Source of the DNA: Tubiluchus corallicola
Taxonomy: Eukaryota; Animalia; Priapulida
Length of the DNA stretch: 64,000 nt
Direction: 5' to 3'
Assembly (NCBI GenBank): GCA_030141605.1
Contig: JAQGDQ010000216.1
Coordinates: 228,259-292,258 of the forward strand
This document shows positions 7,209 through 41,212 of this stretch, piece by piece; the first letter of the stretch is position 1; each line of letters starts with the position of its first letter. A model generated the notes under the pieces. It was not told the origin of the DNA. It was given only the letters and a program-made list of their open reading frames with translations, and searched no databases. The position numbers and the translations under genes were made by a program.

Positions 7209-8756
7209 TTATATCCATTCAAAACCTCCTGAGCCATCGGCGGTAAGAACCTGCCCAGCTGCACCTGTACTGCCATTTTTATCTACTATGCTGGTTACTT
7301 CTATCGCACCATCCACTTTTAAAGCGTGTGTGCCCGATGGTGCGGTGTTAATACCAACGTTTCCACTAAGGCGTGAATTGCCATTCACGTCGAGCCGATG
7401 GGATGGATTTCGCAATACGCCCAAACCCGTATTTGTAACATTAATGTAACTGTTGCCACCACCTGTATCAATTCGAATGGAATTACCACCATTCGCATAT
7501 ACGCTCGACGTCTCCGCAACTCCAAAAATTATACCATTGTTGCCGCCAATTGTTGGCAAAAACACCCCACCCGACTGCACTACCAGAGATTTAGAAGGGT
7601 TGGCTGTTTTTATCCCAACATTGCCATCAGCTTTTACTACCAGTTTATCATCTTTTACAGTAAAACTACTGTCTCCAAAAATTTTCACTGCATCATCCTG
7701 ACCAATATGAACATCATTAATACCTGCAGGAACAGTTACATTAGTTCCACCAGAACCCCCTCTTATTGGCAATCCCACATATTCTTGCGGAATTACCAAC
7801 GTGGTTGATACATCAGGGGTGTAGGTTGTAAAAAGATTGTATATATTTTCCGTCAAAACATATTTGGCATTTGTGGAAGTAGACGTGTTAGCTTCTATTA
7901 CGCACGTAAAAACATCGTTCAAAGCAACAGAATTTATTGCAAATTCTTTTAATACAAGGAATTGGTTGCCATTATCTACAGCGGATATGGCAGCAGAAGC
8001 CACTTCAATAGTACTGTTTTTAAAAATTTTTACAAAACCGGAAAAGCTGTCTCCTGTTTCTAGTCCTTCAACAGATAATATAAGTTGAACAGATATAACT
8101 AAACTACTTACCTGCGCAGATATCAGCTCTATACCATTTCCATTTACGTTAAATAGGGTACTGTTATCCCCGACCTGCGTTTGAAATTCAATTTCGGCAC
8201 TTGTGCCTTGTAAAATTTCTTGCACCGCGTCATTCGTCGACGAAAGCGAAGGTATTACAACTTGAGTCCCTAAGGGAGCATACCCAGCTATGTTGTCGCG
8301 TGTCATTACTACAAGTGAGTTGGCTATAGTGGGGTTTGCCGTATCCCTCAATTGGTCAAAAGAATGATCTGCCAATGATACTTTGCCGCGAACTTTCAAT
8401 ACCTCTAATAATTGACTCAACGTTAGATGATAGTAAGCTCCCGGCTCGCCCCCCTGCAGGTCAGGAAGTGTATTGTGTTTATCTATTCCTGCACCACCAC
8501 TTGTTGTTCGTGTAACTATATCATTTATCTCTGTTATAATAGTATTCTCGTCATCCTGCGAGCCATCTGCTACGGTAGTGCCTGCGACGTCTTTTACAAT
8601 TATATTTGTTACTGATATAGCGTTGGCTAAATCGGGTTTGTCTACTTCACTAAAAATATTTACAAAACCGGGGTTGGCTATTTCAGCCCGGTATATTTTG
8701 GGATATACCACCCCATCCTTCAAAAAATTGTTACTATTAAGCTCTTGTATTTCCAT
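7209..8756 (-). CDS. Fibre-like virion structural protein
   Basis: HNTLPDLQGG..YYHLT and GNVGI.T..P...L.V.G repeats; N-terminal ~83 aa paralogous to 8759-9010. Confidence 0.6.
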   Translation of the reverse strand: MEIQELNSNNFLKDGVVYPKIYRAEIANPGFVNIFSEVDKPDLANAISVTNIIVKDVAGTTVADGSQDDENTIITEINDIVTRTTSGGAGIDKHNTLPDLQGGEPGAYYHLTLSQLLEVLKVRGKVSLADHSFDQLRDTANPTIANSLVVMTRDNIAGYAPLGTQVVIPSLSSTNDAVQEILQGTSAEIEFQTQVGDNSTLFNVNGNGIELISAQVSSLVISVQLILSVEGLETGDSFSGFVKIFKNSTIEVASAAISAVDNGNQFLVLKEFAINSVALNDVFTCVIEANTSTSTNAKYVLTENIYNLFTTYTPDVSTTLVIPQEYVGLPIRGGSGGTNVTVPAGINDVHIGQDDAVKIFGDSSFTVKDDKLVVKADGNVGIKTANPSKSLVVQSGGVFLPTIGGNNGIIFGVAETSSVYANGGNSIRIDTGGGNSYINVTNTGLGVLRNPSHRLDVNGNSRLSGNVGINTAPSGTHALKVDGAIEVTSIVDKNGSTGAAGQVLTADGSGGFEWI

Positions 8757-8758: not shown

Positions 8759-9010
8759 TTATATAATTATATTGTTAATTGCGGCTACAATGGTATTTTC
8801 ATCATCTACAGAACCATTTGCTACGATAGTGCCTCCAGCGTCTTTTACAATTATATTTGTTACCGATATGGCGTTGGCTAAATTAGGTTTGGCTTTTATT
8901 ACGCTAAATATATTTACAAAACCTGTTTTGTCTATCTCTGCACGATATATTTTGGGATATACCACCCCATCCTTCAAAAAATTGTTACTATTAAGCTCTT
9001 GTATTTCCAT
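8759..9010 (-). CDS. 83-aa protein paralogous to the N-terminus of 7209-8756
   Basis: First 26 aa identical (MEIQELNSNNFLKDGVVYPKIYRAEI); ~250-bp tandem DNA duplication. Confidence 0.8.
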   Translation of the reverse strand: MEIQELNSNNFLKDGVVYPKIYRAEIDKTGFVNIFSVIKAKPNLANAISVTNIIVKDAGGTIVANGSVDDENTIVAAINNIII

Positions 9011-9025: not shown

Positions 9026-9529
9026 TTAATTTTCAAATTGCGGATCTACTACGCCGCTGGCGGGTGTTAATGTATAGGGTTGGTTGTAGGCGGTGTATAC
9101 AGTGCAGCCAAACTCTAGTTCATAAGTAAGCCAGCCGCGTGTGGGTAGTCGGTTAAATCGCGTAAGGTAGAGCTGTGAGTGGCAGGTGTTGGCGGTGCCT
9201 CCTATAGCTTCGTATATAACTTGTAATTTATCGAGATGTTCTAAGGCTACGGCTTGCTCCGCACTTATGTTACTGGCTCGTTCGCTTACACTGAAGGCTA
9301 CTTTTATATTTATAGTAAGGCTGCCCTGTTGTGTGGTGCGTCCGTTGAGTTCGAACTCCTGGCCTTGCTGTACATCTATCAATACGGCAGGAAAGCTAAC
9401 GGGTGCATTGGCTTTTTCTTCTAATTGTCCAAAGTCCCAGTCTAAGTAATAGGCTTCTAATTTGCCATCGCTCACGGCTTGTTGCAAGTTGTTATCTATG
9501 CCTGTGAATATTTGTTTGAGGAATTGCAT
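9026..9529 (-). CDS. Tail terminator/completion protein (Mu gp37-like)
   Basis: YLDWDFGQLE...PVSFPAVLID pattern; position after the morphogenesis gene. Confidence 0.6.
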   Translation of the reverse strand: MQFLKQIFTGIDNNLQQAVSDGKLEAYYLDWDFGQLEEKANAPVSFPAVLIDVQQGQEFELNGRTTQQGSLTINIKVAFSVSERASNISAEQAVALEHLDKLQVIYEAIGGTANTCHSQLYLTRFNRLPTRGWLTYELEFGCTVYTAYNQPYTLTPASGVVDPQFEN

Positions 9530-9954
9530 TAATTATTAATTATCTTAGTTATATCTTGTTTTATGTTGCTTATAGCTTTATTTGTCCAGTTTTTGTGGAC
9601 TCCAGCATATTGTCGTTTGGGGATATAGGCAGAGCGGCGGCGTCCGGCACGTCCCCCTTCGTTATGTATCTCGGCATAAGGTTCCTCGCTGCTTATCACT
9701 ATCTTATTTCCTCTACCTTTTATCTTTATACTGTCACGTAAGTTGGTGGTGTCCACCAATAAGGGGTGTCCACGACCTGCATCCTTACGAGCTCGCCACC
9801 TGCGGCCTGCCGGTGATTTTGACTTACGAAAGTTACCTATTATATTCTTTTCCATTTCTACAGATATTACTTTAGGGGCTGTTTTTTGCAGGTATTTTTG
9901 TAGCTCGCTATTTCTTTTTTGCCATTTTTTCTGTAGCTGTTTTACTGTGCTCAT
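9529..9954 (-). CDS. Phage virion morphogenesis/tail completion protein (Mu G/P2 S-like)
   Basis: W..RK...L.DT..LRDSI...PYAEIHNEGG...IPKRQY motif. Confidence 0.85.
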   Translation of the reverse strand: MSTVKQLQKKWQKRNSELQKYLQKTAPKVISVEMEKNIIGNFRKSKSPAGRRWRARKDAGRGHPLLVDTTNLRDSIKIKGRGNKIVISSEEPYAEIHNEGGRAGRRRSAYIPKRQYAGVHKNWTNKAISNIKQDITKIINN

Positions 9955-9964
9955 TATTTTGTAT

Positions 9965-10046
9965 TATATTTGTAGCTTATCGCGGTTTTGGGCGAAAGCT
10001 CTACTAAGATAGACAGGGGATTGCTTCGGCGTCCCCATTTTATTTT
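9965..10046 (+). ncRNA. Candidate ~65-70 nt structured small RNA convergent on muF
   Basis: TATATTTG -7 element at 9965-9972; GGGC-GAAA-GCTC hairpin at 9990-10001; GGGGATTGC-TTCG-GCGTCCCC at 10016-10036 followed by a T-rich tail. Confidence 0.45.
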
Positions 10047-11311
10047 GCTAGGTTCTTATAATTATACTTACGCCATCGCTTATCAATAAAAATATGTACA
10101 TCGTTTATATTGGCTTTGGGTTTGCGTTTGGCGACCTCCTTTAATTGTCCTTTGGCGCGAGCAAAAGTCATCTCGTTGCTGCTAGTTACTTTGATGCTTA
10201 CATCTATTTTGTTTTTGCTTTTTTCTGCTTGTTTAACGGCTGTTTCTAATCGCACCCCAGCTCTTTTTGTGGTTTGTTTAAATTCGTTGAGCCTGTTAAA
10301 TACCATTGCATCTATATGTTTTTTGCCGTGGATATATCCGTTTGGCATAAATTCTACAAGGTGGCCGCGGTTGTTAAACTCCTTAGCTATTTCCAGTTCT
10401 TGCGACTTCGGAGATAAGCTACGTGGTACAAGTGTGGGCGGCTTGGTGTTTCCTGCAAGAAATTGCCTTGTATAACCCTGATCAAAACGTGCTGCCCATT
10501 GCAGAGCTTTATTGGGTTGTGGAGTCGTAAAGTAAGGGTGGGATTTGTCAAAGGGTGGTTCCTTTCCATAATTAGAACTAAACATTGGCTTCAGTTCTAA
10601 TTCTCCTTTTTGTGTTTGTTTACTCCGTGTAGACTCTACTGTACAGCGGCATCCCCAATCGTTTGGCGGCAAATGAGTAGCCCAAAAGGGGTGGTCGATG
10701 GGATATACAGAGCCGTCTATTTGCTGATGGTCGGGGCGTACCTTGCTGTCCCCCGCTGTGAGGTAGCGTATAGATGGGTAGAGGTCTTTGTTCTGTACAG
10801 CTCTTTGCCACTTTTCGGCCATAGCTGCCGAGCGGTTGGCGTGCATATATTCGCTTCGTAGCCAATTCTTATTGTATTTTTCTGATATTTTCAAAGCCTC
10901 TTTTTTAAATTGCTCAAATGTTCTGCGCTCGCCCCCGCTGTTTACAAGTTGTTGAGCTACTTCAAGTGTATTGTTGTGATTTTTAAAAGCTGCAAAAGTT
11001 GAAAAATTGGTTTTTACCCGTTGTACAAAATTCCAGTTGGGTTCATTCCACTTAGTTTTTAATATATTTTGTTTATAAGTTTTGTTGTAATTATTTACAA
11101 AACCGTTGTATGTTTTTTCAAATGTTTTACGGTCTATTTCGCCCGCCTTTAAACTGCCTTTAAACAGCCTTGCAATAGTGTTGTTTATCTCTTTTTGTAG
11201 TGATGGTAGTATTACATCGTTTGTTAGTTGTTGGTTGTCCTTGTTGTATAATTTGTGTAGTGCTATAAAGTGTTGTTTTGCTGCCCCGCTTTTAATTACG
11301 GGGCTTATACG
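10040..11311 (-). CDS. MuF/SPP1 gp7 minor head protein with C-terminal PD-(D/E)xK-like putative toxin domain; probably expressed as a -1 frameshift fusion to portal
   Basis: Y.TAGD.KVRPDH...HPFW..HLPPNDWGCRC MuF motif; frame open from ~11320 with no ATG/GTG/TTG before 10894; C-terminal E..IA...G..VEFMP...KHID...EFK. Confidence 0.8.
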   Translation of the reverse strand, partial: RISPVIKSGAAKQHFIALHKLYNKDNQQLTNDVILPSLQKEINNTIARLFKGSLKAGEIDRKTFEKTYNGFVNNYNKTYKQNILKTKWNEPNWNFVQRVKTNFSTFAAFKNHNNTLEVAQQLVNSGGERRTFEQFKKEALKISEKYNKNWLRSEYMHANRSAAMAEKWQRAVQNKDLYPSIRYLTAGDSKVRPDHQQIDGSVYPIDHPFWATHLPPNDWGCRCTVESTRSKQTQKGELELKPMFSSNYGKEPPFDKSHPYFTTPQPNKALQWAARFDQGYTRQFLAGNTKPPTLVPRSLSPKSQELEIAKEFNNRGHLVEFMPNGYIHGKKHIDAMVFNRLNEFKQTTKRAGVRLETAVKQAEKSKNKIDVSIKVTSSNEMTFARAKGQLKEVAKRKPKANINDVHIFIDKRWRKYNYKNLAK

Positions 11312-11317
11312 AAAAAA
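11283..11317 (-). promoter_or_regulatory. Programmed -1 frameshift signal (portal to MuF)
   Basis: Minus strand T_TTT_TTC (11317-11311), 6-nt spacer GTATAA, hairpin GCCCCG-N10-CGGGGC. Confidence 0.7.
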
Positions 11318-12576
11318 TCTTTAACCTTCAGTTCGTTTGTTCTACCTACGTTACGCGGTGTTAGTGTGTCTTCTTCGTCTTGTGGTGTATTGCGTTTGTA
11401 GCGTTCGTAGAGCTCTTCTTTGGAGAGCGGCACTCCCATACTTAGAAGGGTTTCATCTACCTTTATGTGTTCTTCTGTACTATGTGTGTTTACCTCTTTA
11501 AACTGGAACTCACCTTGCAAATTCCAATTAGCACGGTTGAGTATAGGTAGTAGTTGGTTGTTAAGTGTACGTATTACCAATTGTCTGTCTTTGGAATTGA
11601 GCTGTTGGCTTACATCTCCATGTATTTGTGCCTGTGCGTAGCCAGAGTTGCGGCTGTCGAGTGTGGTCATGCTTTCACCTAATATACGTATGGCCATACG
11701 TTCCATCAGTCGCTTGTCAAGGGTGTCGTAAGTTCCATTAGCGCTTCCTGAGCCGCTGCCTGCTCCTGCATACATTATTTCTACATCTTTGTCGGTTATA
11801 AGTGTTGCTCCTGCTCCTGCTTCTTCTATTTGTTCTTTTATCTTCTCCCTTTCATCTTCATTATCCACTTTTATGTGTTTTTCGGGCATTCCGTATGTTT
11901 CGTTGCTTTCGCCCCAGTCGCCTATATTGTTCTCCATACGTATAGATAACTTACTGGCTTGTAGGTAAGCTCCCAAACTATACGGGTCGCCTACAGCTAT
12001 TGTGTTGTTGCTTTGTGGCGGTGTCAGGTAGCTTAAGCCTGTTGTGCTATAAGGGTCTTTTACTACTATGCCAAGCTCTGGCTTTACGTGTGAGCGAGGT
12101 ATAAGCACAACACTACCCTCTTCTATGCTGTTGGGCTTAGGTGCTGCTACTTCCAAAAGACTATATCCAAACAGCTCGCTGTTGATGGTTTCTTTTAATA
12201 TAGTGGTAAAATAATTGGTATCGAATATAGGGGCTATCTCTTCGTTCTCCGTGCCATCTTGGTTTTTAAATATTATGGGCGTGTTGAGTATGGGCATACG
12301 GCGTTTATCTGATAGTGATGCTAAGAAGTCGTCTTTGCTTAATACATCCCAGTATAGTTCGTAGAGTAGTTTGCGGGTCTTGGTCTCTCCGCAGGCGTGG
12401 TCGCGTGCAGCCTTCCAGTCTTGCATATCGCGACGGCGTTTGCTAAATGTAGTAAGGTTGATGTATTTAATAAGGGTGTTTTCTGCGTTTTCGCCCCGTG
12501 TTATAGTTACCCTACCTGTGTCAAGTCTAGCAGGTGGTACGGGTTTTTTCCTCCATTTTTTAAAAAAGCTAAACAT
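11305..12576 (-). CDS. Portal protein (Mu gp29/DUF935)
   Basis: FGYSLLE, IPRSHVKPE, WGE..E.YGMP, ILGESMTT...GYAQAQIH motifs. Confidence 0.9.
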   Translation of the reverse strand: MFSFFKKWRKKPVPPARLDTGRVTITRGENAENTLIKYINLTTFSKRRRDMQDWKAARDHACGETKTRKLLYELYWDVLSKDDFLASLSDKRRMPILNTPIIFKNQDGTENEEIAPIFDTNYFTTILKETINSELFGYSLLEVAAPKPNSIEEGSVVLIPRSHVKPELGIVVKDPYSTTGLSYLTPPQSNNTIAVGDPYSLGAYLQASKLSIRMENNIGDWGESNETYGMPEKHIKVDNEDEREKIKEQIEEAGAGATLITDKDVEIMYAGAGSGSGSANGTYDTLDKRLMERMAIRILGESMTTLDSRNSGYAQAQIHGDVSQQLNSKDRQLVIRTLNNQLLPILNRANWNLQGEFQFKEVNTHSTEEHIKVDETLLSMGVPLSKEELYERYKRNTPQDEEDTLTPRNVGRTNELKVKDFFV

Positions 12577-25852: not shown

Positions 25853-28615
25853 ATGAAAAGACAAAGTTTAGAAACAGGTGTACGTAGGTGGTTTGGCGAA
25901 GACTGGATAAAACTACAGAACGAAATATACAAAGCATTAGAACAAGGCTTGCTCAACAATCTTGACGACTGCATACTGGGAGGTATGGAAGTAACGCCTA
26001 ATGGTGGCAACTACGATGTAGCACCCGGTATATGCTATGTAGGGGGTAAGATAGCTATCTACGAAGGAGCTACTAACACAACACTGCCTATAACCTTGAT
26101 GCTCAAAGAAACACCCGCAGACGATAGGCTCTACTTAGACGGATCTACCAAACCAACACGCACCCACTACACAGCTGCTACAGACGGCACACTGGGCGGC
26201 AATTTGGAGATAAGCCCAACAAAAGACCCACGCATACAAATACCTGCCTTAAATAGCAACGGGGAGCTAATAGGAGTAGTGAAAAGCAACAGTACCACGC
26301 TTGACGACAGCAACACCTTAGCCACCAGTAAGGCAGTGAGGGATGCCACAAGGGGTAGTTCTACCGAACAGGTGCAAATAGGAAATGGTGCAGAAGCCAG
26401 TGGTATCAATTCTACCGCAGTGGGAAGCCTTGCAGCTGCCAGTAACGACTCTTCCGTTGCATTGGGACGAAAAGCAATAGCCAGTATGAACTTTTCCACC
26501 GCACTGGGATACCTCACAGAAGCCAGTGGACTCAATTCCACCGCAGTGGGACGCGAAGCAACAGCCAGTGGTTCCAATTCTATCGCACTAGGGAATGGAG
26601 CAACTGCCAGTAGAAGCTATTCCACCGCACTGGGACGCGATACACAAGCCAGTGGCGACTGGTCCACCGCACTGGGATACACTGCGCAAGCCAGTGGCGA
26701 AAATTCCACCGCACTGGGACGAAATGCACAAGCCAGTGGAAGCACTTCCACCGCACTGGGATACAATGCAAAAGCCAGTGGCTACTTGTCCACCGCACTG
26801 GGATACACTGCGCAAGCCAGTAGCACCTCATCCACCGCACTGGGATACACTGCAGAAGCCAGTCAAAACAGATCCACCGCAGTGGGACGAAGTGCAAAAG
26901 CCCGTGGAAGCTATTCCACCGCACTGGGAAACGAAGCAACAGCCAGTGCCGAAAATTCCACCGCACTCGGAAACACTGCACAAGCCAGTGGAAGCTATTC
27001 CACCGCACTGGGAACCTATGCAGAAGCCAGTGGAAGCAGTTCCACCGCACTGGGAGACAATGCAAAAGCCAGTGGAAGCAGTTCCACCGCACTGGGATAC
27101 GGTGCACAAACCAGTGGCGGCTGGTCCACCGCACTGGGATACGGTGCAAAAGCCAGTGGCATCGCATCCACCGCACTGGGAAACCAACCAGTAGCCAGTG
27201 GCGAAGATTCCATTGCAATAGGAAACAGAGTGATAGGCAGTGAAGATACTACAGCCAGTGGAGAACGCTCCATTGCAATAGGAAGCATTGCAGCAGCCAG
27301 TGGAGCCTATTCCATCGCACTGGGAAACGCTGCAACAGCTGATGGAATCAATTCCATCGCACTGGGATACAACACCAATGAACAAATAATTGGTGGAAAT
27401 AGTTCCATCGCACTGGGAGACAGAGCAAAAGCCGGAGGTGAAGCTTCCACCGCACTGGGATTCCAAGCAGCAGCCAGTGGACTCTATTCCACCGCACTGG
27501 GATTCCAAGCAGAAGCCCGTGAAAGCTATTCCACCGCACTGGGAATCGAAGCAATAGCCAGTAACGAAAATTCCACCGCACTGGGAACCTTTGCAATAGC
27601 CAGTGGATTCTGTTCCACCGCACTGGGATGCAATGTAAAAGCCAGTGAAAGCTATTCCACCGCACTGGGATACAATGCACAAGCCAGTGCCGACAGTTCC
27701 ACCGCACTGGGACAAAATACTACAGCCAGTGGCGTACAATCCATTGCAATAGGAAACAGAGTGATAGGCAGTGAAGATACTACAGCCAGTGGAGAACAAT
27801 CCATTGCAATAGGAGGCAGTGCAACAGCCAGTGGAATATATTCCACCGCACTGGGATGCAATGCAATAGCCAGTAAAAACAGATCCACCGCACTGGGATA
27901 CGGTGCACAAGCCACTAATATAGAATCCACCGCACTGGGAACCGCTGCAACAGCCAGTGGAAACAGATCCACCGCACTGGGATACAATGCAAAAGCCAGT
28001 GTAAGCAGTTCCACCGCAGTGGGAGAAAATGCACAAGCCAGTGGAGGCAGTTCCACCGCACTGGGACGAAGTGCAATCGTATCAGCAGACAGCACTATGG
28101 TACTTGGGAACTCTAATACTACTGTAATACTAAGCAATGGTAACGCGGTAACTTCCGACGAGCGAGATAAGATAGACATAGCCGATAATGAGCTGGGACT
28201 GGACTTTGTAAAGCAAATAAAAACCCGCAAATGGAGAGGCAACAATAGAGATAGGTACTGGGTAAAAGAAAAAGTAAAAGGAGAAAAAAGAGAAGGAGTA
28301 GAAGAGACAGAGGAAAGAGAAGTATTCAAAACAGATGAAAAAGGCGAACGTGTGTACGATGCTAAGGAACACGCCAAGGGAAGCAAAGCAGGCAAACGCT
28401 GGCACAGGGGGATAATAGCCCAAGAAATGTTAGAGCTCGTAGACCCGATGGAATTTTCGGGGGTAAAAGATACAGAGGTGAACAACCCCGACATCACCCA
28501 TCAAGAAATGAGCTTTGCCTACGACCAACTCATCGCCCCAATGATAAAAGCTATACAAGAACTATCGGCAAAAACAGAGGAGCTTTTTAAAAGAATAGAA
28601 CAATTGGAGAAGTAA
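25853..28615 (+). CDS. Tail fibre/spike with YadA-head (Hep_Hag) 14-aa repeats and a C-terminal S74 intramolecular chaperone
   Basis: About 39 STALGxxAxASGxx repeats; TSDERDK.DI....GLDFV, G.IAQE, Y.QLIAPMIKAIQEL. Confidence 0.9.
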   Translation: MKRQSLETGVRRWFGEDWIKLQNEIYKALEQGLLNNLDDCILGGMEVTPNGGNYDVAPGICYVGGKIAIYEGATNTTLPITLMLKETPADDRLYLDGSTKPTRTHYTAATDGTLGGNLEISPTKDPRIQIPALNSNGELIGVVKSNSTTLDDSNTLATSKAVRDATRGSSTEQVQIGNGAEASGINSTAVGSLAAASNDSSVALGRKAIASMNFSTALGYLTEASGLNSTAVGREATASGSNSIALGNGATASRSYSTALGRDTQASGDWSTALGYTAQASGENSTALGRNAQASGSTSTALGYNAKASGYLSTALGYTAQASSTSSTALGYTAEASQNRSTAVGRSAKARGSYSTALGNEATASAENSTALGNTAQASGSYSTALGTYAEASGSSSTALGDNAKASGSSSTALGYGAQTSGGWSTALGYGAKASGIASTALGNQPVASGEDSIAIGNRVIGSEDTTASGERSIAIGSIAAASGAYSIALGNAATADGINSIALGYNTNEQIIGGNSSIALGDRAKAGGEASTALGFQAAASGLYSTALGFQAEARESYSTALGIEAIASNENSTALGTFAIASGFCSTALGCNVKASESYSTALGYNAQASADSSTALGQNTTASGVQSIAIGNRVIGSEDTTASGEQSIAIGGSATASGIYSTALGCNAIASKNRSTALGYGAQATNIESTALGTAATASGNRSTALGYNAKASVSSSTAVGENAQASGGSSTALGRSAIVSADSTMVLGNSNTTVILSNGNAVTSDERDKIDIADNELGLDFVKQIKTRKWRGNNRDRYWVKEKVKGEKREGVEETEEREVFKTDEKGERVYDAKEHAKGSKAGKRWHRGIIAQEMLELVDPMEFSGVKDTEVNNPDITHQEMSFAYDQLIAPMIKAIQELSAKTEELFKRIEQLEK
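26385..28080 (+). repeat. 42-bp coding tandem repeat, about 39 units
   Basis: Conserved GCCAGT and TCCACCGCACTGGGA blocks with variable codons between them. Confidence 0.9.
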
Positions 28616-29103: not shown

Positions 29104-29187
29104 AAAAAACAATAATTGACATGAAAAAAACAATAATTGACATGAAAAAAACAATAATTGACATGAAAAAAACAATAATTGACATGA
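29104..29187 (+). repeat. 21-bp tandem repeat x4 containing the start codon (x2 in the paralog)
   Basis: AAAAAAACAATAATTGACATG; ATGs at 29121, 29142, 29163, 29184 versus 32126, 32147. Confidence 0.9.
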
Positions 29188-31568
29188 AGGTTGTAACTAA
29201 CACAAAGGTATCATCTAAATCTATTGCGTTACTATTATTATTTTCACTCTTCGTTTTTGCGTTAGGGTGTGAAAAAGAAAAAAAAGGTGTAGAGGCTCCT
29301 CTCTCCGGAGAAAAAGATATCAAGGAGTTTGTTTTTAAGGCAATTTATAATAAAAATGTACTAATAGCAGATGTGAACCCCGAAGAAATTTTAGAGGATA
29401 AAATTACATTAATAGTTCCCTATGGCACAGATTTATCAGTAGCATTAATCCCTAGCATAGAAGTATCAGAAAAAGCCAGAGTAAGCCCGGCAAGCGGTGT
29501 GGCAGTGAACTTTAAAGCAGGGTCGGCAGAGTACAAAGTAACAGCAGAAGATAATAGTGTAAAGAGTTATACTGTAATAGTTACGGAAAACAAGTGTGCA
29601 TTTACGAAATTTGTATTTGAACAAAAATATAATACAGGCGTATTAACAGAAGATACTGAACTCGGAGAAATTTCAGAAGAGAACAATACTATTAAACTAA
29701 ATGTTCCTTACAATACAGATGTAACAGCGTTAGTAGCCACTTTTGAGGTATCTGAGGGAGCCACAGTAAAGGTAGATGGAAAACAACAAACAAGTGGAGT
29801 AACAGGGGTTGACTTCTCAGATGTTAATGGTGTAAAATACACTGTAACAGCAGAAGATGGCAACACTAAGGATTATACTGTAACAGTTACGGAAGCACCC
29901 GCAAGTAGTGAATGTGAAATTACAGAATTTCTATTTGAGGGAGACAATAATGAGTTTGAGGATAATGTAACCGCGGAAAATATTACCGGAACCAACATTA
30001 ACATAACAGTTCCTTTCGGTACAGATGTAACAAAGTTAGTAGCCACTTTTACAGTATCTGAGGGAGCCTCAGTAACGGTAGATGGAAACCAACAAACAAG
30101 TGGAGAAACAGGGGTTGACTTCTCAGATGTTAATGGTGTAATATACACTGTAACAGCACAAGATGGCAACACTCAGGAGTATACTGTAACAGTAAAGTCA
30201 CCACAGCCCTCTTTCGCTACCGTGAGCTATTACGAGAGAGAGAACCGTATAGGAGCAGGGGATTTTGAAAAACCCGATCTGTTTGAGATAAGTGATATAG
30301 CAGAGGGGAACTACAATTACACATTGAAGATAGCAGATAAAACTGCAAATGGTACAGTAGAAGTAAAAGACGGTAATGGTACAATAGGCGGCAGTACGCT
30401 GCTTGCTTCTGACTGGAATGAAATAGATGATGGCAATATTATCATTGCATTAACCTTAGAAGGTTCTACCTTTAGCTACAACACTACCAAAGAGCAGTAT
30501 AATATAAAGAGCTGGCAGGATCTGCAGGGGATAAAATATAATCTAGGTGGTCGTTACACTTTGATGAATGATATAGAGCTGCCAGAACCCTCCCAAACAG
30601 AAGGCATTTTCCCGGAAGAGCTACCTAAAGAAGGCTTTGACCCTGTCGGTAATAATGATAATAATAGATTCGAGGGTTCTCTCGATGGTGATGACAAGGT
30701 GATAGAGAACTTGTTTATAGATAGAGAGAATACAAACGGGGTAGGCCTGTTTGGATATATACGGAACGCTGAGATAGAAAATGTAATTATAAAAATAGAT
30801 AACGAAGGAATAGGAATAACTGGAAATTCGAATGTTGGTGGGTTGGTAGGGCTTGGAATTAATTCAACAATTGATAACTGCCATATTACAGGAGGCTCCA
30901 TACTGGCAAAAGGTAATAACGCTGGTGGGGTATTAGGATATGGATCAGTTTCTGATACTGATCTCTTTGAAATATCAAAAAGTTCCGCATCAGTAAATGT
31001 TACCGCAGAGGGTGGCAGCGGTCGTGTCGGAGGATTAGCAGGATCTTTTGGATATTTGAATTATAACACTGATGCTTTAAAAATTAATGAGTGTAAGGCT
31101 ACGGGAAATGTAGCAGGCACAAATCACTTAGGTGGCTTAATAGGAGTGCTTGGAGGTACCGTCACCAACTCTTACAGCACAGGGGATGCTAAAGGTAGTA
31201 GCGGAGGGAGCACTTATGGTGGACTAATAGGAATTTGTACTGCTACAGGAGCAGCCATAATTGAGAACTGTTATGCCACCGGAGAGACGAATAATGCATC
31301 TCCACTGCTTGGTGGCTTGATAGGAGGAGATGCGTCTGAAAATAGTGATATTTATAGTTATTGGGATGAGGAAAGTTCAGGAGTGCAGGAACTTCCTGAA
31401 ACTCTGGCAGGAATTGGAGTTAGCAGTGGCAGCCATTTGAAAAAAGAGGGCAGCCAGTACAAAGATACTGAAAAGGATAGAGAAGTCTTTGAATACTGGG
31501 ACTTCTCAAATACTTGGAAATGGGTGAATGATGGAGAGTGGCCCATTCTCAATTGGGAGGCGCAATAA
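29121..31568 (+). CDS. Surface lipoprotein: 3 Ig-like (DUF5018-like) repeats + GLUG-motif beta-helix
   Basis: Lipobox FALG-C then EKEKK; VP.GTD...YTVTAEDG repeats; VGGLVG/YATG repeats; W......WP.L.W end. Confidence 0.88.
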   Translation: MKKTIIDMKKTIIDMKKTIIDMKVVTNTKVSSKSIALLLLFSLFVFALGCEKEKKGVEAPLSGEKDIKEFVFKAIYNKNVLIADVNPEEILEDKITLIVPYGTDLSVALIPSIEVSEKARVSPASGVAVNFKAGSAEYKVTAEDNSVKSYTVIVTENKCAFTKFVFEQKYNTGVLTEDTELGEISEENNTIKLNVPYNTDVTALVATFEVSEGATVKVDGKQQTSGVTGVDFSDVNGVKYTVTAEDGNTKDYTVTVTEAPASSECEITEFLFEGDNNEFEDNVTAENITGTNINITVPFGTDVTKLVATFTVSEGASVTVDGNQQTSGETGVDFSDVNGVIYTVTAQDGNTQEYTVTVKSPQPSFATVSYYERENRIGAGDFEKPDLFEISDIAEGNYNYTLKIADKTANGTVEVKDGNGTIGGSTLLASDWNEIDDGNIIIALTLEGSTFSYNTTKEQYNIKSWQDLQGIKYNLGGRYTLMNDIELPEPSQTEGIFPEELPKEGFDPVGNNDNNRFEGSLDGDDKVIENLFIDRENTNGVGLFGYIRNAEIENVIIKIDNEGIGITGNSNVGGLVGLGINSTIDNCHITGGSILAKGNNAGGVLGYGSVSDTDLFEISKSSASVNVTAEGGSGRVGGLAGSFGYLNYNTDALKINECKATGNVAGTNHLGGLIGVLGGTVTNSYSTGDAKGSSGGSTYGGLIGICTATGAAIIENCYATGETNNASPLLGGLIGGDASENSDIYSYWDEESSGVQELPETLAGIGVSSGSHLKKEGSQYKDTEKDREVFEYWDFSNTWKWVNDGEWPILNWEAQ

Positions 31569-31618
31569 TACTAAAACCCTACTTCAGGTAGAAATATAAT
31601 ACTAATTCAAGACAGAAC

Positions 31619-31661
31619 AAAACCCCGAAAAAGGACAAATTTGATCCTGAATCGGGGTTTT
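31619..31661 (+). terminator. Terminator-like hairpin after lipoprotein 1
   Basis: AAAACCCCGA...TCGGGGTTTT. Confidence 0.55.
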
Positions 31662-31665
31662 CTGT

Positions 31666-31781
31666 GACACTGTTTCACAAAGTGTAAATATAGCACTATC
31701 TCATAAACTGTATAAATAGAAAATGCCGAGGGTTGCAACCCTCGGCATTTTTTTAGTTTACACACTTTGTGAAACAGTGTC
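31666..31781. mobile_element. IS256-type MITE copy 2 (31692-31781) with an extra outer IR
   Basis: GACACTGTTTCACAAAGTGT at 31666 is a perfect 20-bp inverted match to the right end. Confidence 0.8.
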
Positions 31782-32125
31782 TGCAATACACTCTGCCCAA
31801 ATCGAAACAAGTCAGAACAAAAATATTACAGCCAACTGAAATGCAAAAAAAGTTGTTAAATATGAAATTATAAACTTGGGTGCTGCAATGCACAAAACAG
31901 GAAGTAGTTGTTTCAAACAAGGCTTAATGTAATGAGCCCTGAGAAGTAATATTGAAAAGGATCATGAAATAAAAATAAAAATTCTTAAAACATGGACCTG
32001 ACATCGACTTGCAGATGTAATTTTTTTCATATCCTCTTTACAGAGTTTTTTTTTCATATCTTTTCATATCTTTGCAGAGTTTTTTCGATCATACTAAGAC
32101 ATCAATTTAAAAAACAATAATTGAC

Positions 32126-34432
32126 ATGAAAAAAACAATAATTGACATGAAGGTTGTAACTAACACAAAGGTATCATCTAAATCTATTGCGTTACTATTA
32201 TTATTTTCACTCTTCGTTTTTGCGTTAGGGTGTGAAAAAGAAAAAAAAGGTGTAGAGGCTCCTCTCTCCGGAGAAAAAGATATCAAGGAGTTTGTTTTTA
32301 AGGCAATTGATAATAAAGATGTACTAATAGCAGATGTGAACCCCGAAGAAATTTCAGAGGATAAAATTACATTAATAGTTCCCTATGGCACAGATCCAAA
32401 TGGATTGATTCCTACTATAGAAGTATCAGATAAAGCCAGTATATATCCGGAGAGTGGAGTCCCGGGAAACTTCACAGATGCAGCAACTTATACTGTAACA
32501 GCAGAAGATAATAGTGTAAAGAGTTATACTGTAATAGTTACGGAAAACAAGTGTGCATTTACGAAATTTGTATTTGAACAAAAATATAATACAGGCGTAT
32601 TAACAGAAGATACTGAACTCGGAGAAATTTCAGAAGAGAACAATACTATTAAACTAAATGTTCCTTACAATACAGATGTAACAGCGTTAGTAGCCACTTT
32701 TGAGGTATCTGAGGGAGCCACAGTAAAGGTAGGCACAGATCCACAAATAAGTGAAGTAACAGAGACTAACTTTACAAGCCCTGTTACCTACACTGTAACA
32801 GCAGAAGATGGCAACATATCTCAGGATTATACTGTAACAGTAAAGCCACAGCCCTCTTTCGCTACCGTGAGCTATTACGAGAGAGAGAACCGTGTAGGAG
32901 CAGGGGATTTTGAAAAACCCGATCTGTTTGAGATAAGTGATATAGCAGAGGGGAGCTACAATTACACATTGAAGATAGCAGATAAAACTGCAAATGGTAC
33001 AGTAGAAGTAAAAGACGGTAATGGTACAATAGGCGGCAGTACGCTGAGTATTTCTGATTGGAATAAAATAGATGATGGCAATATCAACGTTGTATTAGAG
33101 ATTGAAGAGATTGAAGGTATTGACTTTACCTACACTGTAACCAAAGAGCAGTATAAAATAAGAAGTTGGCAAGATTTGCAAGGTATGAAGTATAATTTAA
33201 ATGGTAGTTATACTTTGATGAATGATATAGAACTACCAGACCCTACAAACGGAACTTTCCCTGCCGAGCTTCCATCACAAGGGTTTAAGCCTGTGGGGCA
33301 GGCGCAGTGGACGGAGGATGAGAGTTTTAAAGGCTCATTTGATGGACAGAATTATGTAATAAGCAATTTCTTTATAAATAGAGTAGTTACGGATTATGTA
33401 GGTTTGTTTGGTAGTACCAAAGGTGCAACTACAACTATAGAAAATGTAGGTATAAAAATATCATCAGACGGTGTTACAGGAAGATATTATGTCGGCGGCC
33501 TGGTGGGGCGTGCCTTGGAAGGGAGCACTATTGAAAACTGTAATGTAACGGAGGATGATAATGTAACGGAGAATGATGATATAGTTACAGGAAAAAGAAC
33601 CATTGGCGGCCTGGTGGGGAGTGCCACTAATACCACTATTACCAACAGTTATACAATGATAAAAGTTAATTCAACTGGAGGATCTGCGGGAGATAGTGAT
33701 GTCGGCGGCCTGGTGGGGAGTACCACTAATAGCTCCATTACCAACAGTTATGCAACGGGGGATGTTACAGGAGATAGAACTGTCGGCGGCCTGGTGGGGA
33801 AGGCCGACAGTACTCCCGATATTGGCGACAGTAATATCACTATTGCCAACAGTTATGCAACGGGTAATGTTACAGGAAGTACGATTGTCGGCGGCCTGGT
33901 GGGGGTACTTGAAGCTAATAATAGTAATACGGGATCCTATATTTATAGAAGCTATGCCACAGGTAGTGTAAGTGGTACAAATGTTGAAGAAAGCTATGTA
34001 GGGGGGTTGGTTGGTCGTTTTTTTAGGGGAACTATTTCAGATAGTTATGCTACAGGCAGTGTAAGTGGAGTGAAATATGTAGGAGGGTTGTTTGGGCGTA
34101 TACACTATACTGATGCCTTTACAAAAAGAACTTACGCTACAGGTATAGTGACAGGGAGTAGTGATGTTGGAGGTTTGGGAGGCCATCAATCTGGAGGAGG
34201 AGATACTCATAGTTACTGGGATATACACAGTACAGGACAGACACAGTCTTCTGTAGGAACGGGTGTTTCCTCAAGATCTAATCTGGTAGAGATTGAAGGT
34301 AAATACTACGATACAGGCCCAAACCCTGATGTTGAAGTTTTCATTGACTGGAAGTTTGGCGATAATGATGAGAATCCTTGGAAGTGGGAGGGCACTGGTC
34401 AGTGGCCTACTCTCTACTGGCAGGGGAACTAA
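32126..34432 (+). CDS. Surface lipoprotein: 2 Ig-like repeats + GLUG beta-helix
   Basis: Leader and N-terminus near-identical to 29121; divergent GLUG domain. Confidence 0.88.
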   Translation: MKKTIIDMKVVTNTKVSSKSIALLLLFSLFVFALGCEKEKKGVEAPLSGEKDIKEFVFKAIDNKDVLIADVNPEEISEDKITLIVPYGTDPNGLIPTIEVSDKASIYPESGVPGNFTDAATYTVTAEDNSVKSYTVIVTENKCAFTKFVFEQKYNTGVLTEDTELGEISEENNTIKLNVPYNTDVTALVATFEVSEGATVKVGTDPQISEVTETNFTSPVTYTVTAEDGNISQDYTVTVKPQPSFATVSYYERENRVGAGDFEKPDLFEISDIAEGSYNYTLKIADKTANGTVEVKDGNGTIGGSTLSISDWNKIDDGNINVVLEIEEIEGIDFTYTVTKEQYKIRSWQDLQGMKYNLNGSYTLMNDIELPDPTNGTFPAELPSQGFKPVGQAQWTEDESFKGSFDGQNYVISNFFINRVVTDYVGLFGSTKGATTTIENVGIKISSDGVTGRYYVGGLVGRALEGSTIENCNVTEDDNVTENDDIVTGKRTIGGLVGSATNTTITNSYTMIKVNSTGGSAGDSDVGGLVGSTTNSSITNSYATGDVTGDRTVGGLVGKADSTPDIGDSNITIANSYATGNVTGSTIVGGLVGVLEANNSNTGSYIYRSYATGSVSGTNVEESYVGGLVGRFFRGTISDSYATGSVSGVKYVGGLFGRIHYTDAFTKRTYATGIVTGSSDVGGLGGHQSGGGDTHSYWDIHSTGQTQSSVGTGVSSRSNLVEIEGKYYDTGPNPDVEVFIDWKFGDNDENPWKWEGTGQWPTLYWQGN

Positions 34433-34468
34433 AAAAAGAGGCAAAAGTATACTTACTAATAATTATTT

Positions 34469-34503
34469 AAACCCGTGCTTACTGCAAAGGCACGGGTTTT
34501 TTT
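34469..34503 (+). terminator. Intrinsic terminator (near-identical copy at 39146-39180, related copy at 55524-55556)
   Basis: AAACCCGTGC-loop-GCACGGGTTTTTTT. Confidence 0.8.
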
Positions 34504-34639
34504 GCATAGTTTTTCATCAAAAGAATTTACAGGCTTGATCTTGGGGTTCTTTTGTGTCATGACAAAAGAACTTGATCCTTCGCCTCTCTTACATCAAAAC
34601 AAAAGAATGTAAAGAAAACAGCTAAAAGGAGATATAAAA

Positions 34640-34739
34640 CAATGCCTCGTTTTTGGAGCTCTTGTAAAAAACCATTGAGCTCTTCCCCTGAATTAAACTG
34701 TTCAAGGAAATCATCATTTAATAAATCTTCTTTTTTCAT
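34640..34739 (-). pseudogene. IS256-family transposase 5' remnant
   Basis: MKKEDLLNDDFLEQFNSGEELNGFLQELQKRGI resembles Bacteroidota IS256 N-termini, then loses similarity. Confidence 0.75.
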
Positions 34740-34787
34740 TACTGTCTAAAGTTTTAAAATTAAACAAAAAAATGCCGAGGGATCCTC

Positions 34788-34877
34788 AGCACTATCTCAT
34801 AAACTGTGTAAATAGAAAATGCCGAGGGTTGCAACCCTCGGCATTTTTTTAGTTTACACACTTTGTGAAACAGTGTC
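34788..34877. mobile_element. 90-bp IS256-type MITE, copy 3
   Basis: Near-identical to 28686-28775. Confidence 0.8.
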
Positions 34878-35114
34878 TGCAATACACTCTGCCCAAATCG
34901 AAACAAGTCAGAACAAAAATATTACAGCCAACTGAAATGCAAAAAAAGTTGTTAAATATGAAATTATAAACTTGGGGGCTGCAATGCACAAAACAGGAAG
35001 AACAAGAAGTGTTAAAAAAAAACAATAAAGCAGAATAAAATAAAATTAATTAACTTTCCGCAAAGACATTTTCTTTATCTTTACGAAGATCACTTTAATA
35101 AATTTATTAAGAAT

Positions 35115-38100
35115 ATGAAAACAGCAGCATTTAAACCACTAATCAATATACTTATATTGCTCCTAGCTATTACATTTGGATGCAAAAAAGGGGATGAAGA
35201 ACCACCTCTCTCCGATGAGAATCTGATTACTGAGTTTGCGTTTAGGAAAAGTGTCAATGGGTCATTAGCTGTCGATGTAGATGCGGGTGTAATCACAGGC
35301 ACAGAAATTGAACTAACAGTTCCTTTTGGTACAGCCCTCGAGTTAACTCCTACAATAGAGATATCGGATGGTGCCACTATTAGTCCTGCTAGTGGAGTGC
35401 CTATAAACTTTGAAGAAACAAACCCTGCAAGCTACACAGTAACAGCGGAGAATGGCGACGAGCGGGAGTATAAAGTAACAGTTGAAGTAGCACAAAATAC
35501 CGAATGTAAAATCAAAACTTTTGTATTTGAACAAAAATATAATACAGGCGTATTAACAGAAGATACTGAACTCGGAGAAATTTCAGAAGAGAACAATACT
35601 ATTAAACTAAATGTTCCTTACAATACAGATGTAAAAAATTTAGTAGCCACTTTTGAGGTATCTGAGGGAGCCACAGTAACGGTAGATGGAATTACACAAG
35701 TAAGTGGAGTAACAGATGTCGACTTTACAGGCGATGTTATTTACACTGTAACAGCACAAGATGGAACCTCCACACAGGAGTATACTGTAAAAGTTACGGA
35801 AGCACCCGCAAGTAGTGAATGTGAAATCAAAACTTTTGTGTTTGAGGAAAAAAATAATAAGGATAATTTATATGTCGATGTAGATGCGGGCGTAATTACA
35901 GGCCCAGATATCACACTCACAGTACCTTTTGGTACAGCCCTCGAGTTAACTCCTACAATAGAGATATCGGATGATGCCACTATTAATCCTGCTAGTGGAG
36001 TGCCTGTAAACTTTGGACTACTAAACCATCTAACCTACACAGTAACAGCGGAGAATGGCGACGAGCAGGATTATAAAGTAACAGTTACTGTAGCAGAAAA
36101 CACAGCAAATGACATCATATGGTTTAAATTTGAGCATGAAAAAAATGATGAATTAGATATAGATGTTGACGCCGGAGAGATAGAAGGAACTAACATTGAA
36201 CTAACAGTTCCCCGTAATACGAATATAACAGAACTGATAGCCAGTTTTGAAGTATCAGAAGGAGCCACAGTAAAGGTAGATGGAGAGACACAAGTAAGTG
36301 GAACAACAAAGGTTGACTTCTCAGATGTTGATGGTGTAAAATACATTGTAGAAGCAGAAGATGGCAGCACTCAGGAGTATACAGTAACAGTTAAAGAAGC
36401 AAAAAATAGCGCAAGTGCGATTACTAGCTTTGTGTTTGAGGAAAAAAATAATAAGAATAATTTATATGTCGATGTAGATGCGGGCGTAATTACAGGCACA
36501 GATATCCCACTCATAGTACCTTTTGGTACAGACCTCGAGTTAACTCCTACAATAGGAATATCGGATGGTGCCACTATTAGTCCGGATAGTGGTGAATCTG
36601 TGGACTTTTCCAGCAGCGCCACACAAGCTGTAGAATACACAGTAACATCAGAAGATAATACTACTACTGAGACTTATAGAGTAGAAGTTACTGTAGCATC
36701 TGAAACAGACAAAGAGATTACGAGCTTTGTGTTTGAGGCAGATAAAAATAGTGATAAAGGATTAACTAAAGATGTAGTGGCGGAAGATGTTACAGGTCCG
36801 GATATCACATTAATAGTACCTTATAATACAAATGTAGCATCATTAACTCCTACAATTACAATAAAAGGTAAACACATCACTCCTAAAAGTGGAGAGGCAA
36901 TAAGTTTCGAGAGTTTTGTAACCTATACAGTAACAGCAGGGGATGACACGACTCAGGATTATAAAGTAACAGTTAATAAAGAGGAGGCTAGCACAGCAAG
37001 CGACATACTCCGCTTTGCATTTGAGGTAGGGGATAATAAAGATAAATTAACTGAAGACGTAGTTGTGGAAAATATTACAAGCACAGATATCACACTCGAA
37101 GTACCTTATGGCACAAACCTCGAGCTAATCCCCAGAATAGAGATATCGGAGTATGCTTCAATAGATCCTGAAAGTGGTGTATTAAATGATTTTTCCAACA
37201 GTGAATCAGCACCTGTAGAATACGAAGTAACAGCTCAAGATGATGAAACCACTAAGGTTTACGAAGTAACAGTAAAAGAAACGCCAGCAAGTGACGAAAA
37301 AGAGATCACTCTCTTTGACTTTGAAGTATCAGACAACCCTACATATATAGAAGAAAAAGTGGAGGGTGATATTTCACCTGAAGACAATACAATTAGATTA
37401 AAGGTACCTTTTGGTACAGACGTGCATTCACTAAGGCCCAGAATAGAGATATCGGAGTATGCTTCAATAAGTCCTGAAAGTGGTGTATTAAATGATTTTT
37501 CCAACAGTGAATCAGCACCTGTAGAATACGAAGTAACAGCTCAAGATGAAACTTCCCAGACTTATTATGTAACCGTAGTCATCGAAAATATACCACGCCC
37601 CACTTTCACTGTTTTAAGTTATAATAATGGAGCCAATCGTATAGGAGCCGGAGACTTAGAAAAGCCGGATCTGTTTCAGATAGGAGATCTTCAGGATGGT
37701 AGTTATGACTATTCACTAAAGATAGACAACAAAGATGCAGGAGGTGGTACATTATCAGTATTGGGTGGTAAAGCCTCAATAGGCAGTACGCTGCTTGCTT
37801 CTGACTGGAATGAAATAGATGATGGCAATATTACCATTGTATTAACCTTAGAAGGTTCTACCTTTAGCTACAACACTACCAAAGAGCAGTATAGTGTAAA
37901 GAGTTGGCAGGATCTTCAGGGGATGAAGTACGGTTTGTCAGGTGACTACACTTTGATGAATGATATAGAGCTGCCTGACCCCTCCCAAACAGGAGGCACT
38001 TTCCCGGAGGAGCTTCCTGCAGCAGGTTTTGACCCTGTGGGTGGTAGATTTACAGGTTCATTTAGTTCAGCTAGTGGAGAGATATATGTAATAAGCAACC

Positions 38101-39568: not shown

Positions 39569-40000
39569 TCAGTTTAAACATACACTTAGCAGTTGTTTTT
39601 TTGTGTTGCTATTACGTTCGATAGCTTTAAATTGTTTAATGAGTTTTTGTAGTTCTTTGAGGTTGTACTTGTGAAGATCCTTGTGGTAAACGGAGCTTTT
39701 AATCATCCATTTGTTAAACCTATCGTAATTTCCTTGTGCTAGTTCGGGGAATAGTGCATCGGTGGCTATGGTGAGTACTGTGCTGCGTAGTTTTTTAAGT
39801 GTTTTGTGTTTTTTGGTTTGCTTTATCTGCTCTTGAAGTGCTTTGATGAGGTTTTGTAGTTCTTCTTCCGAGAGTTGCTTGAGGCTCTCTACTCCGTAGT
39901 CATCCTTTATAGCATCTTTCACTACCTGGCTGTACTCTCCACTACCTACAATGGCGTGGAACCTCCTTATAAGTTGTGGTTTTTTAGTAGTTGTTCTCAT
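39569..40000 (-). CDS. Mu GemA-like early protein
   Basis: RRFHA...YGVESLKQLS..EL..LI...LRS.VL...EL.KLIKQF.AI; end of the early operon. Confidence 0.55.
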   Translation of the reverse strand: MRTTTKKPQLIRRFHAIVGSGEYSQVVKDAIKDDYGVESLKQLSEEELQNLIKALQEQIKQTKKHKTLKKLRSTVLTIATDALFPELAQGNYDRFNKWMIKSSVYHKDLHKYNLKELQKLIKQFKAIERNSNTKKQLLSVCLN

Positions 40001-40040
40001 TTTTTTTTAAGTTGATTAAAATAATAGGAATTAGTAACTG

Positions 40041-40661
40041 TTATATGTTGCTAAAGTTGAGTTCTATATTTTGGTACTCTCCTGATTTACTTTTTACCCA
40101 TATCCGTAGGTATTGCTTGCTGCTGATTACGCGGATGGCTTTTTCTATGAGATCTAAGGCAGTGTGAAATTGTGGGTTTTTTATTTTGGTGCGGTAACGT
40201 AGAAGTGCTGTTATTTTTTTTACGTCTAACTTTCCTCTGCTGGTTTCGAAGGCGTTCATTACTAGTTGTTTTACTACCTCGTTTTCGCTGTTTATGTTGT
40301 TGCTGATGAATTGGTTGAGTAGTGTTTTGGCTTGCTCTATGAGGTTGTCGTCGAACTCTTGTCGGTCGTTGATGTTGAGCTCGAGCTTTACGTCGCGGTT
40401 GAAGCTGTAGAGTGTGTAGTTGCCTTTGCGTTGTTCTATGCTTATACCGTTTTCTGCCATTTCTTCTAAATAGCTGTTGTGGCTTGCATCCATTGCGTAT
40501 AGTTTGAAGTCGCTTAGTTTTTTGGAAAGTTGTTGTGCCTCCTTTACGAGTTTGGCAAGTAACCGTTCTTTTTTCTTTTCGCTTTTTGTTACTCTGTTTA
40601 TAGGTATGGCGTTTCCTTGCTCATCTTCCCATATCTTTTCTTTGTTGGTGTGTAGTTTCAT
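40041..40661 (-). CDS. DUF3164-family Mu-like early protein
   Basis: KGNYTLYSF, FDD....AK.L, SK.Y.R.W.K...GEY..I.LNFS. Confidence 0.8.
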   Translation of the reverse strand: MKLHTNKEKIWEDEQGNAIPINRVTKSEKKKERLLAKLVKEAQQLSKKLSDFKLYAMDASHNSYLEEMAENGISIEQRKGNYTLYSFNRDVKLELNINDRQEFDDNLIEQAKTLLNQFISNNINSENEVVKQLVMNAFETSRGKLDVKKITALLRYRTKIKNPQFHTALDLIEKAIRVISSKQYLRIWVKSKSGEYQNIELNFSNI

Positions 40662-40677
40662 AGTTATTTGTTAATAA

Positions 40678-40926
40678 TTAGTTAATAATTGTAGCTATGT
40701 ATGTTCCTGTTATTGCTCCGCTTGCTGCCCCAAGTGCATAAACAATGCGTTGCAGGTCGTTGTGCATAGCCATTTTCTTTACCTTGGTAGCCCATAGGTA
40801 GCTTATGGCAAAGGAGCATATACCTAAACCTATCCAATGGAGGTTGGCAATAAAATAGGTGTTGCCTGCCACGAATAGTACTTGTAAAAAAGCTGTGGCA
40901 AATAGTTTACATAGTTTTTTGTTCAT
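40678..40926 (-). CDS. Small membrane protein
   Basis: 82 aa, three hydrophobic segments. Confidence 0.6.
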   Translation of the reverse strand: MNKKLCKLFATAFLQVLFVAGNTYFIANLHWIGLGICSFAISYLWATKVKKMAMHNDLQRIVYALGAASGAITGTYIATIIN

Positions 40927-41211: not shown

Positions 41212-41212
41212 A

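Follow-up and report, generated by a model that had tools for sequence, protein, structure and literature searches.

Introduction

Polymorphic MuF toxins of temperate phages are known from the work of Jamet in 2017 (PMC5576092) and from Bxa, reported with Bsi/BAH and Apk2 (PMC11699363), and in the literature that was found the immunity to polymorphic toxins is based on proteins. The locus described here lies in a window of 64,000 nucleotides (the whole stretch of DNA that was analysed) and raises the question of how a lysogen could be protected when a MuF gene with a nuclease-like tail is followed so closely by the next structural gene that no immunity protein fits in between. An RNA decoy in this slot would be a departure from what is known; a search of titles and abstract starts, in which few subscription journals were covered, gave no RNA immunity for MuF, CdiA_C, LPD3 or PBECR toxins.

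The MuF locus and its portal junction

The locus is held by a Mu-like prophage, the host of which is probably a member of the Bacteroidota as judged from its relatives, and it reads on the - strand in the order portal, MuF with its tail, a gap of 85 bp and a Neck1-type gene. The Mu-type portal gene (11305..12576, -) matches Pfam Portal_Mu with an E of 4e-47. The MuF frame, open from stop to stop over 426 aa (10040..11320, -), joins the MuF domain (Pfam Phage_Mu_F, residues 124-227, E 1.8e-15) to a C-terminal predicted toxin tail, whereas the next structural gene, Phage_tail_S / Neck1 (9529..9954, -; Pfam E 2.8e-12; PHROG 26), starts with an ATG at 9954. Between this ATG and the MuF stop at 10040-10042 lies the gap, 9955-10039. 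A MuF domain that adjoins the portal within the head module is a mark of MuF polymorphic toxins, and so is a variable C-terminal toxin domain, which is CdiA_C-like in the window and of the LPD3, PBECR or deamidase type in relatives. An initial sequence-only reading of this DNA had held that the gap is too small for an immunity protein, and the 85 bp measured between MuF and the Neck1-type gene bear this out; no small downstream immunity ORF was found, the gap being devoid of any ATG-started antisense frame of at least 25 aa.

The earliest ATG, GTG or TTG in the MuF frame occurs only at 10894. At the end of the portal gene we find a candidate -1 frameshift signal (11283..11317, -), composed of the heptamer T TTT TTC (11317-11311), the portal stop and a hairpin (11304-11283). 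Of 70 portal-MuF junctions with a -1 overlap, 50 have a slippery heptamer at the offset from the stop that is seen here, compared with 1-4 at other offsets; the heptamer takes the forms TTTTTTC, AAATTTT, GGGAAAG and AAAAAAG. The lack of an early MuF start, together with the heptamer in these 50 junctions, suggests that the toxin is probably made as a low-copy extension of the portal through -1 frameshifting. Among titles and abstract starts, no paper on a portal-MuF frameshift was found.

The MuF tail as a predicted tRNase

The tail, named P0001 (10043..10450, -), is predicted to be a tRNase of the CdiA_C-like PD-(D/E)xK type from its modelled fold, an HMM and the ESM Atlas. The motif originally pointed out in its letters, E..G..MP..HID..EFK, is seen as E20, G29, MP35-36, HID45-47 and EFK56-58 of P0001, from which E20, D47, E56 and K58 emerge as candidate catalytic residues; they align on conserved columns of the MuF-tail HMM and supply the acidic and lysine residues of a CdiA_C tRNase. 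The ESM Atlas placed the tail with PF18451 CdiA_C clusters (0.94), and an HMM of 38 PF18451-matching MuF tails, from which the window was excluded, scored it at 25 bits. An alignment-based AF2 model (pLDDT 86) had as its top Foldseek match 4G6V_A, the CdiA-CT of Bp1026b (prob 1.00, TM 0.58, E 0.002), and a profile including the window tail matched 4G6V at E 1.6e-8; this model was used instead of a single-sequence AF2 model, which gave no meaningful Foldseek match. The predicted structure therefore has the PD-(D/E)xK fold of CdiA_C (PF18451) tRNases, in agreement with the resemblance to CdiA-type enzymes that had been claimed for the tail.

The window tail is a divergent one, with a best identity of 24% to its nearest row and a long branch in a quick tree. 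Pfam returned no PF18451 match for it, the family being matched by 35 of 93 other tails scanned, some of them under the cut-off. Tail-only protein searches found no kin, and the whole-library search gave two matches, both of them long repetitive proteins. The CdiA-CT of Bp1026b cleaves tRNA-Ala at the acceptor stem, while the related enzyme E479 cleaves in the T loop (PMC9086364). Altogether, the MuF tail is likely a CdiA_C-type PD-(D/E)xK domain, predicted by modelling to be a tRNA acceptor-stem nuclease. It shares with the CdiA-CT/CdiI system of Burkholderia pseudomallei 1026b (4G6V, PF18451) the PD-(D/E)xK fold and the aligned acidic residues, but the identity is 17%, no CdiI-like gene is adjacent and the substrate of the window tail is only a predicted one. 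Moreover, CdiA/CdiB deliver the Burkholderia toxin and the CdiI protein is its inhibitor (PMC9086364), whereas the window tail forms the end of a phage head protein.

A promoter-like site and two hairpins in the gap

On the strand opposite to MuF, the gap carries TATATTTG (9965-9972, +), a convergent element of the form TAnnTTTG, as the sequence-only reading had stated, which is the Bacteroidota -7 consensus (PMC7366714). This form is at chance level in the window (79 matches vs 78.6 expected) and no TTTG was visible at the -33 spacing before the element, the weight of which comes from its conservation in relatives.

The convergent RNA predicted from this site would be 60-70 nt long. Its 5' hairpin (9975..10003, +), a candidate mimic of a tRNA acceptor end, has a stem opened by a G-C pair (9975-9999) and followed by UCUA; for an RNA start at 9975, the preferred 5' fold comprises GCUU/AAGC and UCGC/GCGA pairings with an 8-nt loop, then UCUA. 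A GAAA-tetraloop hairpin had been proposed here instead. Its letters are indeed present on the + strand (9990-10001), but the RNA would have to start at 9979 for this hairpin to be favoured, its probability being at most 0.12 for starts within 9973-9977 (four of the five positions tested), and it is better regarded as one of two predicted folds and only a possible working fold. The second structure put forward from the letters, a C(UUCG)G hairpin with a U-rich tail (10016..10047, +), did appear in the minimum-energy fold and is a likely terminator of the RNA; the hairpin itself spans 10016-10036 and was not called by a simple terminator scan, while the U-rich tail extends over the stop codon of MuF. 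On both strands, folding of the gap is better than that of shuffled sequences (z -2.9 on + and -3.3 on -; fold energies -25.9 vs -20.2 kcal/mol), so that the strand is not given by folding alone. An Rfam covariance-model search over 9700-10300, with E allowed up to 10, yielded no match.

Association of the site with nuclease tails

The comparison was based on 183 fetched loci plus the window, which gave 148 distinct MuFs with the MuF motif and a complete end, grouped into 114 clusters at 70% identity. Of these clusters 113 were scored, with L150 left out for its short flank, and L140, a broken row where the motif falls within the continuation of the gene, was left out of the LPD3 count. A promoter site was defined as an antisense TAnnTTTG 25-140 nt past the MuF stop. 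Such a site, at the same relative position as in the window, was present in 40 of 41 clusters with a CdiA_C tail, in 17/17 with an LPD3 tail and in 3/4 with a PBECR tail, the miss being a Solidesulfovibrio contig; it was found in 1/10 clusters with unclassified tails, in 46 of 626 background windows and in only 3 of 32 tail-less clusters, a control that may be partly unfair with regard to the hosts of the tail-less loci. Independent of the host is the control of gap length, with a median of 1 nt in MuFs lacking a tail vs about 100 nt in those with CdiA_C or LPD3 tails. The co-occurrence with the toxin tail proposed as a check by the sequence-only reading thus holds, and both gap and site are nearly absent behind tail-less MuFs, where an equal presence would have spoken against it.

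An independent set from two genome samples and two named phages, with 42 loci that had an HMM match (weak matches included), contained 32 promoter sites; several of these loci are stand-alone ORFs lacking MuF. Taking both sets together, and leaving L260, L262 and L263 (weak or wrong-domain matches) and L264 (no match) out of the catalytic tally, the site lies behind 73 of 78 tails keeping both acidic residues vs 0/4 of those with one or both lost. Among the five misses with intact tails, the motif is at or beyond the cut-off in two, a variant in one and missing in two. The degenerate locus L258 kept its hairpins with a decayed site, and the degenerate L034 shares one starred clade with the RNA-bearing L084 and L116. 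As judged from their sequences, the arrangement of a nuclease tail and a convergent site is real and widespread, being shared by dozens of related phages.

The CdiA_C tails of L265 (Winogradskyella phage Peternella_1), L034 and L108 have lost catalytic residues and have no RNA cassette, and read as degenerate toxins kept on MuF. On the other hand, stand-alone CdiA_C ORFs in open frames of 145-191 aa, with no MuF motif, occur at L252, L274, L275, L282, L285, L292 and L294; these also show a convergent promoter site and a folded stretch, resembling free toxin-antitoxin modules.

Shapes of the predicted RNAs

When the RNAs were folded from the TTTG to the MuF stop, those of CdiA_C loci mostly comprised a 5' hairpin and a terminator-like hairpin. 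In 38 of 73 CdiA_C RNAs, position 5 after TTTG is exactly where a stem begins, and among these stems the first pair is G-C in 34, whereas all six pair types occur at pairs 2 and 3. An N-CC following the position-5 stem was found in 18 CdiA_C RNAs vs 0-4 at other start positions. Scored as a test, which was devised after inspection of the first set, this feature was present in 17/41 CdiA_C RNAs (41%) vs 1-4 in eight shuffle rounds and in 0/17 LPD3 RNAs; at held-out loci it reached 7/32 (22%) vs 0-3 in shuffles. More than half of the CdiA_C RNAs fail this test, including that of the window. Several CdiA_C RNAs match the acceptor ends of Bacteroidota tRNAs (for example Gly, Cys, Thr and His) at 9 or 10/10 letters, but position-free matching revealed no enrichment, either for tRNA 3' ends (8.24 in CdiA_C RNAs vs 8.14 in shuffles) or for T arms. 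RNAalifold found no consensus structure for 24 hairpins that had been aligned with MAFFT, and so yielded no formal covariation result.

The LPD3 RNAs, in turn, mostly fold into a single long stem capped by an apical loop. A hairpin similar to an anticodon arm occurs in 5/17 of them (shuffle mean 0.89, maximum 5), three of the five having one common loop sequence, whereas the same rule finds 8/73 CdiA_C RNAs (shuffle mean 3.85, maximum 8). The LPD3 RNA of L164 equals a tRNA-His anticodon arm at 16/17, with one base different, and the PBECR RNA of L132 matches a T arm at 16/17. The predicted RNA shape thus differs by nuclease class. A quick tree indicates that RNA motifs also follow the clades of the tails, which is descriptive because kin share traits.

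The RNA of the window matches a tRNA-Thr end at 9/10. It fails the strict N-CC test because its stem begins at position 3 and its tail UCUA reads CUA, a form of N-CUA also present in L174 and L178; with its stem followed by UCUA, it is by its sequence a divergent member of the CdiA_C RNAs. An 11-nt match with the RNA of L116, in the absence of tail kinship, is possibly due to convergence.

Other RNAs deserve a mention. Mostly longer ones belong to L107, L287, L289, L291, L285, L288 and L079, which form one starred tail clade, and several of them have a motif similar to a tRNA variable arm plus an altered T loop, making them candidate T-loop decoys. In L172, L178, L090, L171 and L279 an exact common core, GCGCGAUAACUUCAAGCU, is kept inside variable stems. 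In L277 and L132, the antisense strand 3' of the toxin stop carries nearly whole tRNA-like sequences that include a GGUUCGA T arm; the decoys may have evolved from such sequences.

The same slot in Hankyphage and other relatives

Tails of the deamidase and peptidase types have a convergent promoter at +199 to +240 in 8/8 cases, and an antisense ORF of 76-98 aa in 7/8. The antisense-ORF rule also fired in 7/63 nuclease-tail and 8/32 tail-less clusters, and is therefore specific only together with the upstream promoter. In Hankyphage jmh43, the MuF-deamidase is faced by hp22 in the convergent slot. In the RNA-seq of S6 Data of PMC12135933, no other gene of the prophage had as many normalised reads as hp22 when the lysogen was repressed (6 h): 1452-1779, vs 1-2 for MuF and 1 for Neck1, which puts hp22 ~1000-fold above MuF. 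These data show that the slot promoter is active in a relative, albeit one whose slot codes for a protein. The Hankyphage p00 pair of MuF-glutamine deamidase and hp22 thus shares slot, orientation, promoter motif and, for Hankyphage, high expression in the lysogen, but its slot holds an 89-aa protein with an inferred role in immunity, whereas that of the window holds a predicted RNA. MuF peptides were also found in the lysate of Hankyphage, a relative with another tail.

A proposed decoy antitoxin and its alternatives

The reading that we favour, with a probability of about 65%, is that of a toxin-immunity pair whose small RNA acts as a tRNA-fragment decoy antitoxin against the MuF nuclease. 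It is based on how the tail is predicted to fold, on the gap of 85 bp, on the conserved site and on the absence of this site behind tail-less and degenerate MuFs, as well as on the protein ORF that occupies the slot of protein-targeting tails and on RNA shapes that track the nuclease class. An RNA antitoxin or decoy had already been advanced by the sequence-only reading, which gains support from the fold, the tail-bound promoter site, its loss behind degenerate tails and the class-specific RNA shapes. In the proposed mechanism, the lysogen would make the convergent RNA constitutively, from a promoter presumed active there by analogy with the Hankyphage slot; the 5' hairpin would imitate the acceptor end of a tRNA and occupy the nuclease, serving as a decoy that is either left uncut or sacrificed. 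The toxin itself would be packaged, with -1 frameshifting probably supplying it as a minor portal-MuF-nuclease product, and would cut tRNA in cells devoid of the matching RNA. The weakest step, to which we give about even odds, is the mimic in the window, a GCUU/AAGC stem whose UCUA tail has CUA instead of CCA.

An RNA in this position might also act on the toxin message, pairing as a type I-like antisense with the 3' region of the MuF mRNA or interfering by its transcription with the late operon, so that less toxin is made. The RNA is fully complementary to the intergenic stretch of the mRNA, and the convergent 3'-overlapping geometry is that of txpA/RatA and bsrG/SR4 of B. subtilis (PMC6562991). 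We consider this mode of action unlikely, since it would ignore the toxin type, yet a short RNA lies behind nuclease tails and a protein ORF behind deamidase and peptidase tails; nor does it predict class-specific tRNA-like shapes, and only a few bases of coding sequence are overlapped. A product of the convergent promoter might alternatively be a micro-protein immunity factor, as slots coding for proteins in other toxin classes would suggest, and the window does have a TTG-started frame of 33 aa from 9988, antisense into MuF. However, this frame must be read through the terminator-like hairpin, and only 14/61 RNAs have an ATG-started antisense frame of at least 25 aa beginning in the gap, which makes a micro-protein highly improbable.

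The gap could moreover be a by-product of tail swapping, in which a terminator and a left-over promoter or tRNA scrap remain and immunity is elsewhere or unneeded. The chance frequency of TAnnTTTG in the window, the good folding of both gap strands and the near-perfect tRNA pieces at few loci (L132, L277) fit such an origin, but the fixed register between promoter and stem, the loss of the cassette behind degenerate tails and the protein ORFs of other toxins in the same slot leave little room for it, and we hold it to be very unlikely. Little probability is likewise assigned to an RNA that binds the nuclease as a cofactor, guide or packaging partner and not as an inhibitor: RNA motifs following the tail clades would be compatible with it, as would a MuF/gp7 that is a low-copy capsid protein bound to the portal (PMC5576092), but the RNA is set apart from the late operon by its convergent promoter, and the Hankyphage slot is expressed while MuF is silent.

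The decoy reading can be extended to a widespread, undescribed class in Bacteroidota phages and genomes, where tRNases of at least three families (CdiA_C, LPD3 and PBECR) would each be disarmed by a very small tRNA-fragment decoy that corresponds to the part cut by the enzyme, be it the acceptor end, the anticodon arm or the T arm; the pairs would be both virion-fused and stand-alone. On this general statement our opinion is evenly divided. If true, the RNA sequence would predict the target of each nuclease, so that the tRNAs attacked by uncharacterised CdiA_C, LPD3 and PBECR domains could be read from sequence. An RNA decoy in the immunity slot would also extend RNA antitoxins beyond the ToxIN and AbiF families and account for MuF nucleases that seemingly lack immunity.

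Relation to known systems

The window resembles the MuF polymorphic toxins described in the sources cited above in its MuF domain after the portal, its variable C-terminal toxin and an adjacent protective element, but it has no room for an immunity gene and its slot is occupied by a predicted RNA. A direct neutralization of a nuclease by a non-coding RNA has been proposed for the type III systems ToxIN, AbiQ, TenpIN and CptIN and for AbiF/RCd22 (bioRxiv 10.1101/2025.04.15.648962). In those cases, the antitoxins are tandem repeats located upstream and co-transcribed with ToxN-related or AbiF toxins (same source), whereas the RNA of the window is a single copy, downstream and on the opposite strand, resembles parts of tRNAs and faces, in the window and its relatives, toxins of the CdiA_C, LPD3 or PBECR type. 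Pfam and Foldseek place the toxin outside ToxN, TenpN, CptN and AbiF. The arrangement therefore likely works in the manner of a type III pair but outside that family, as a MuF toxin without protein immunity.

As for type I systems, the predicted RNA of the window is complementary to the MuF mRNA by position, and in B. subtilis txpA/RatA and bsrG/SR4 the antitoxin RNA also meets the 3' end of the toxin gene; these RNAs, as described in PMC6562991, target mRNAs, mostly of small hydrophobic peptides, and have no likeness to tRNA. The supplement of PMC10690425 holds over ten thousand candidate phage RNAs, which may include the motifs described here with no function attached.

Other features of the prophage

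Lysis, head and tail genes of the prophage occupy ~6037-28615; early genes, among them AAA_22, DUF3164, GemA-like and HTH genes, form a module at 39569-45671. The idea of a structural-only remnant was dropped upon finding this module. A 694-aa ORF within it, with no Pfam match, is taken as the transposase by position only. Three large proteins with DUF5018-type domains, two of them with GLUG repeats, are encoded at 29121-39122 (+), after the tail-fibre gene and before the early module, and constitute cargo inside the prophage. The tail fibre itself (25853-28615, +) contains a G+C-rich stretch and 26 repeats of the YadA-head type, and weakly matches an endosialidase chaperone. Finally, an 83-aa ORF at 8759-9010 (-) is a near-duplicate of the N-terminus of the adjacent 515-aa protein (7209-8756, -).
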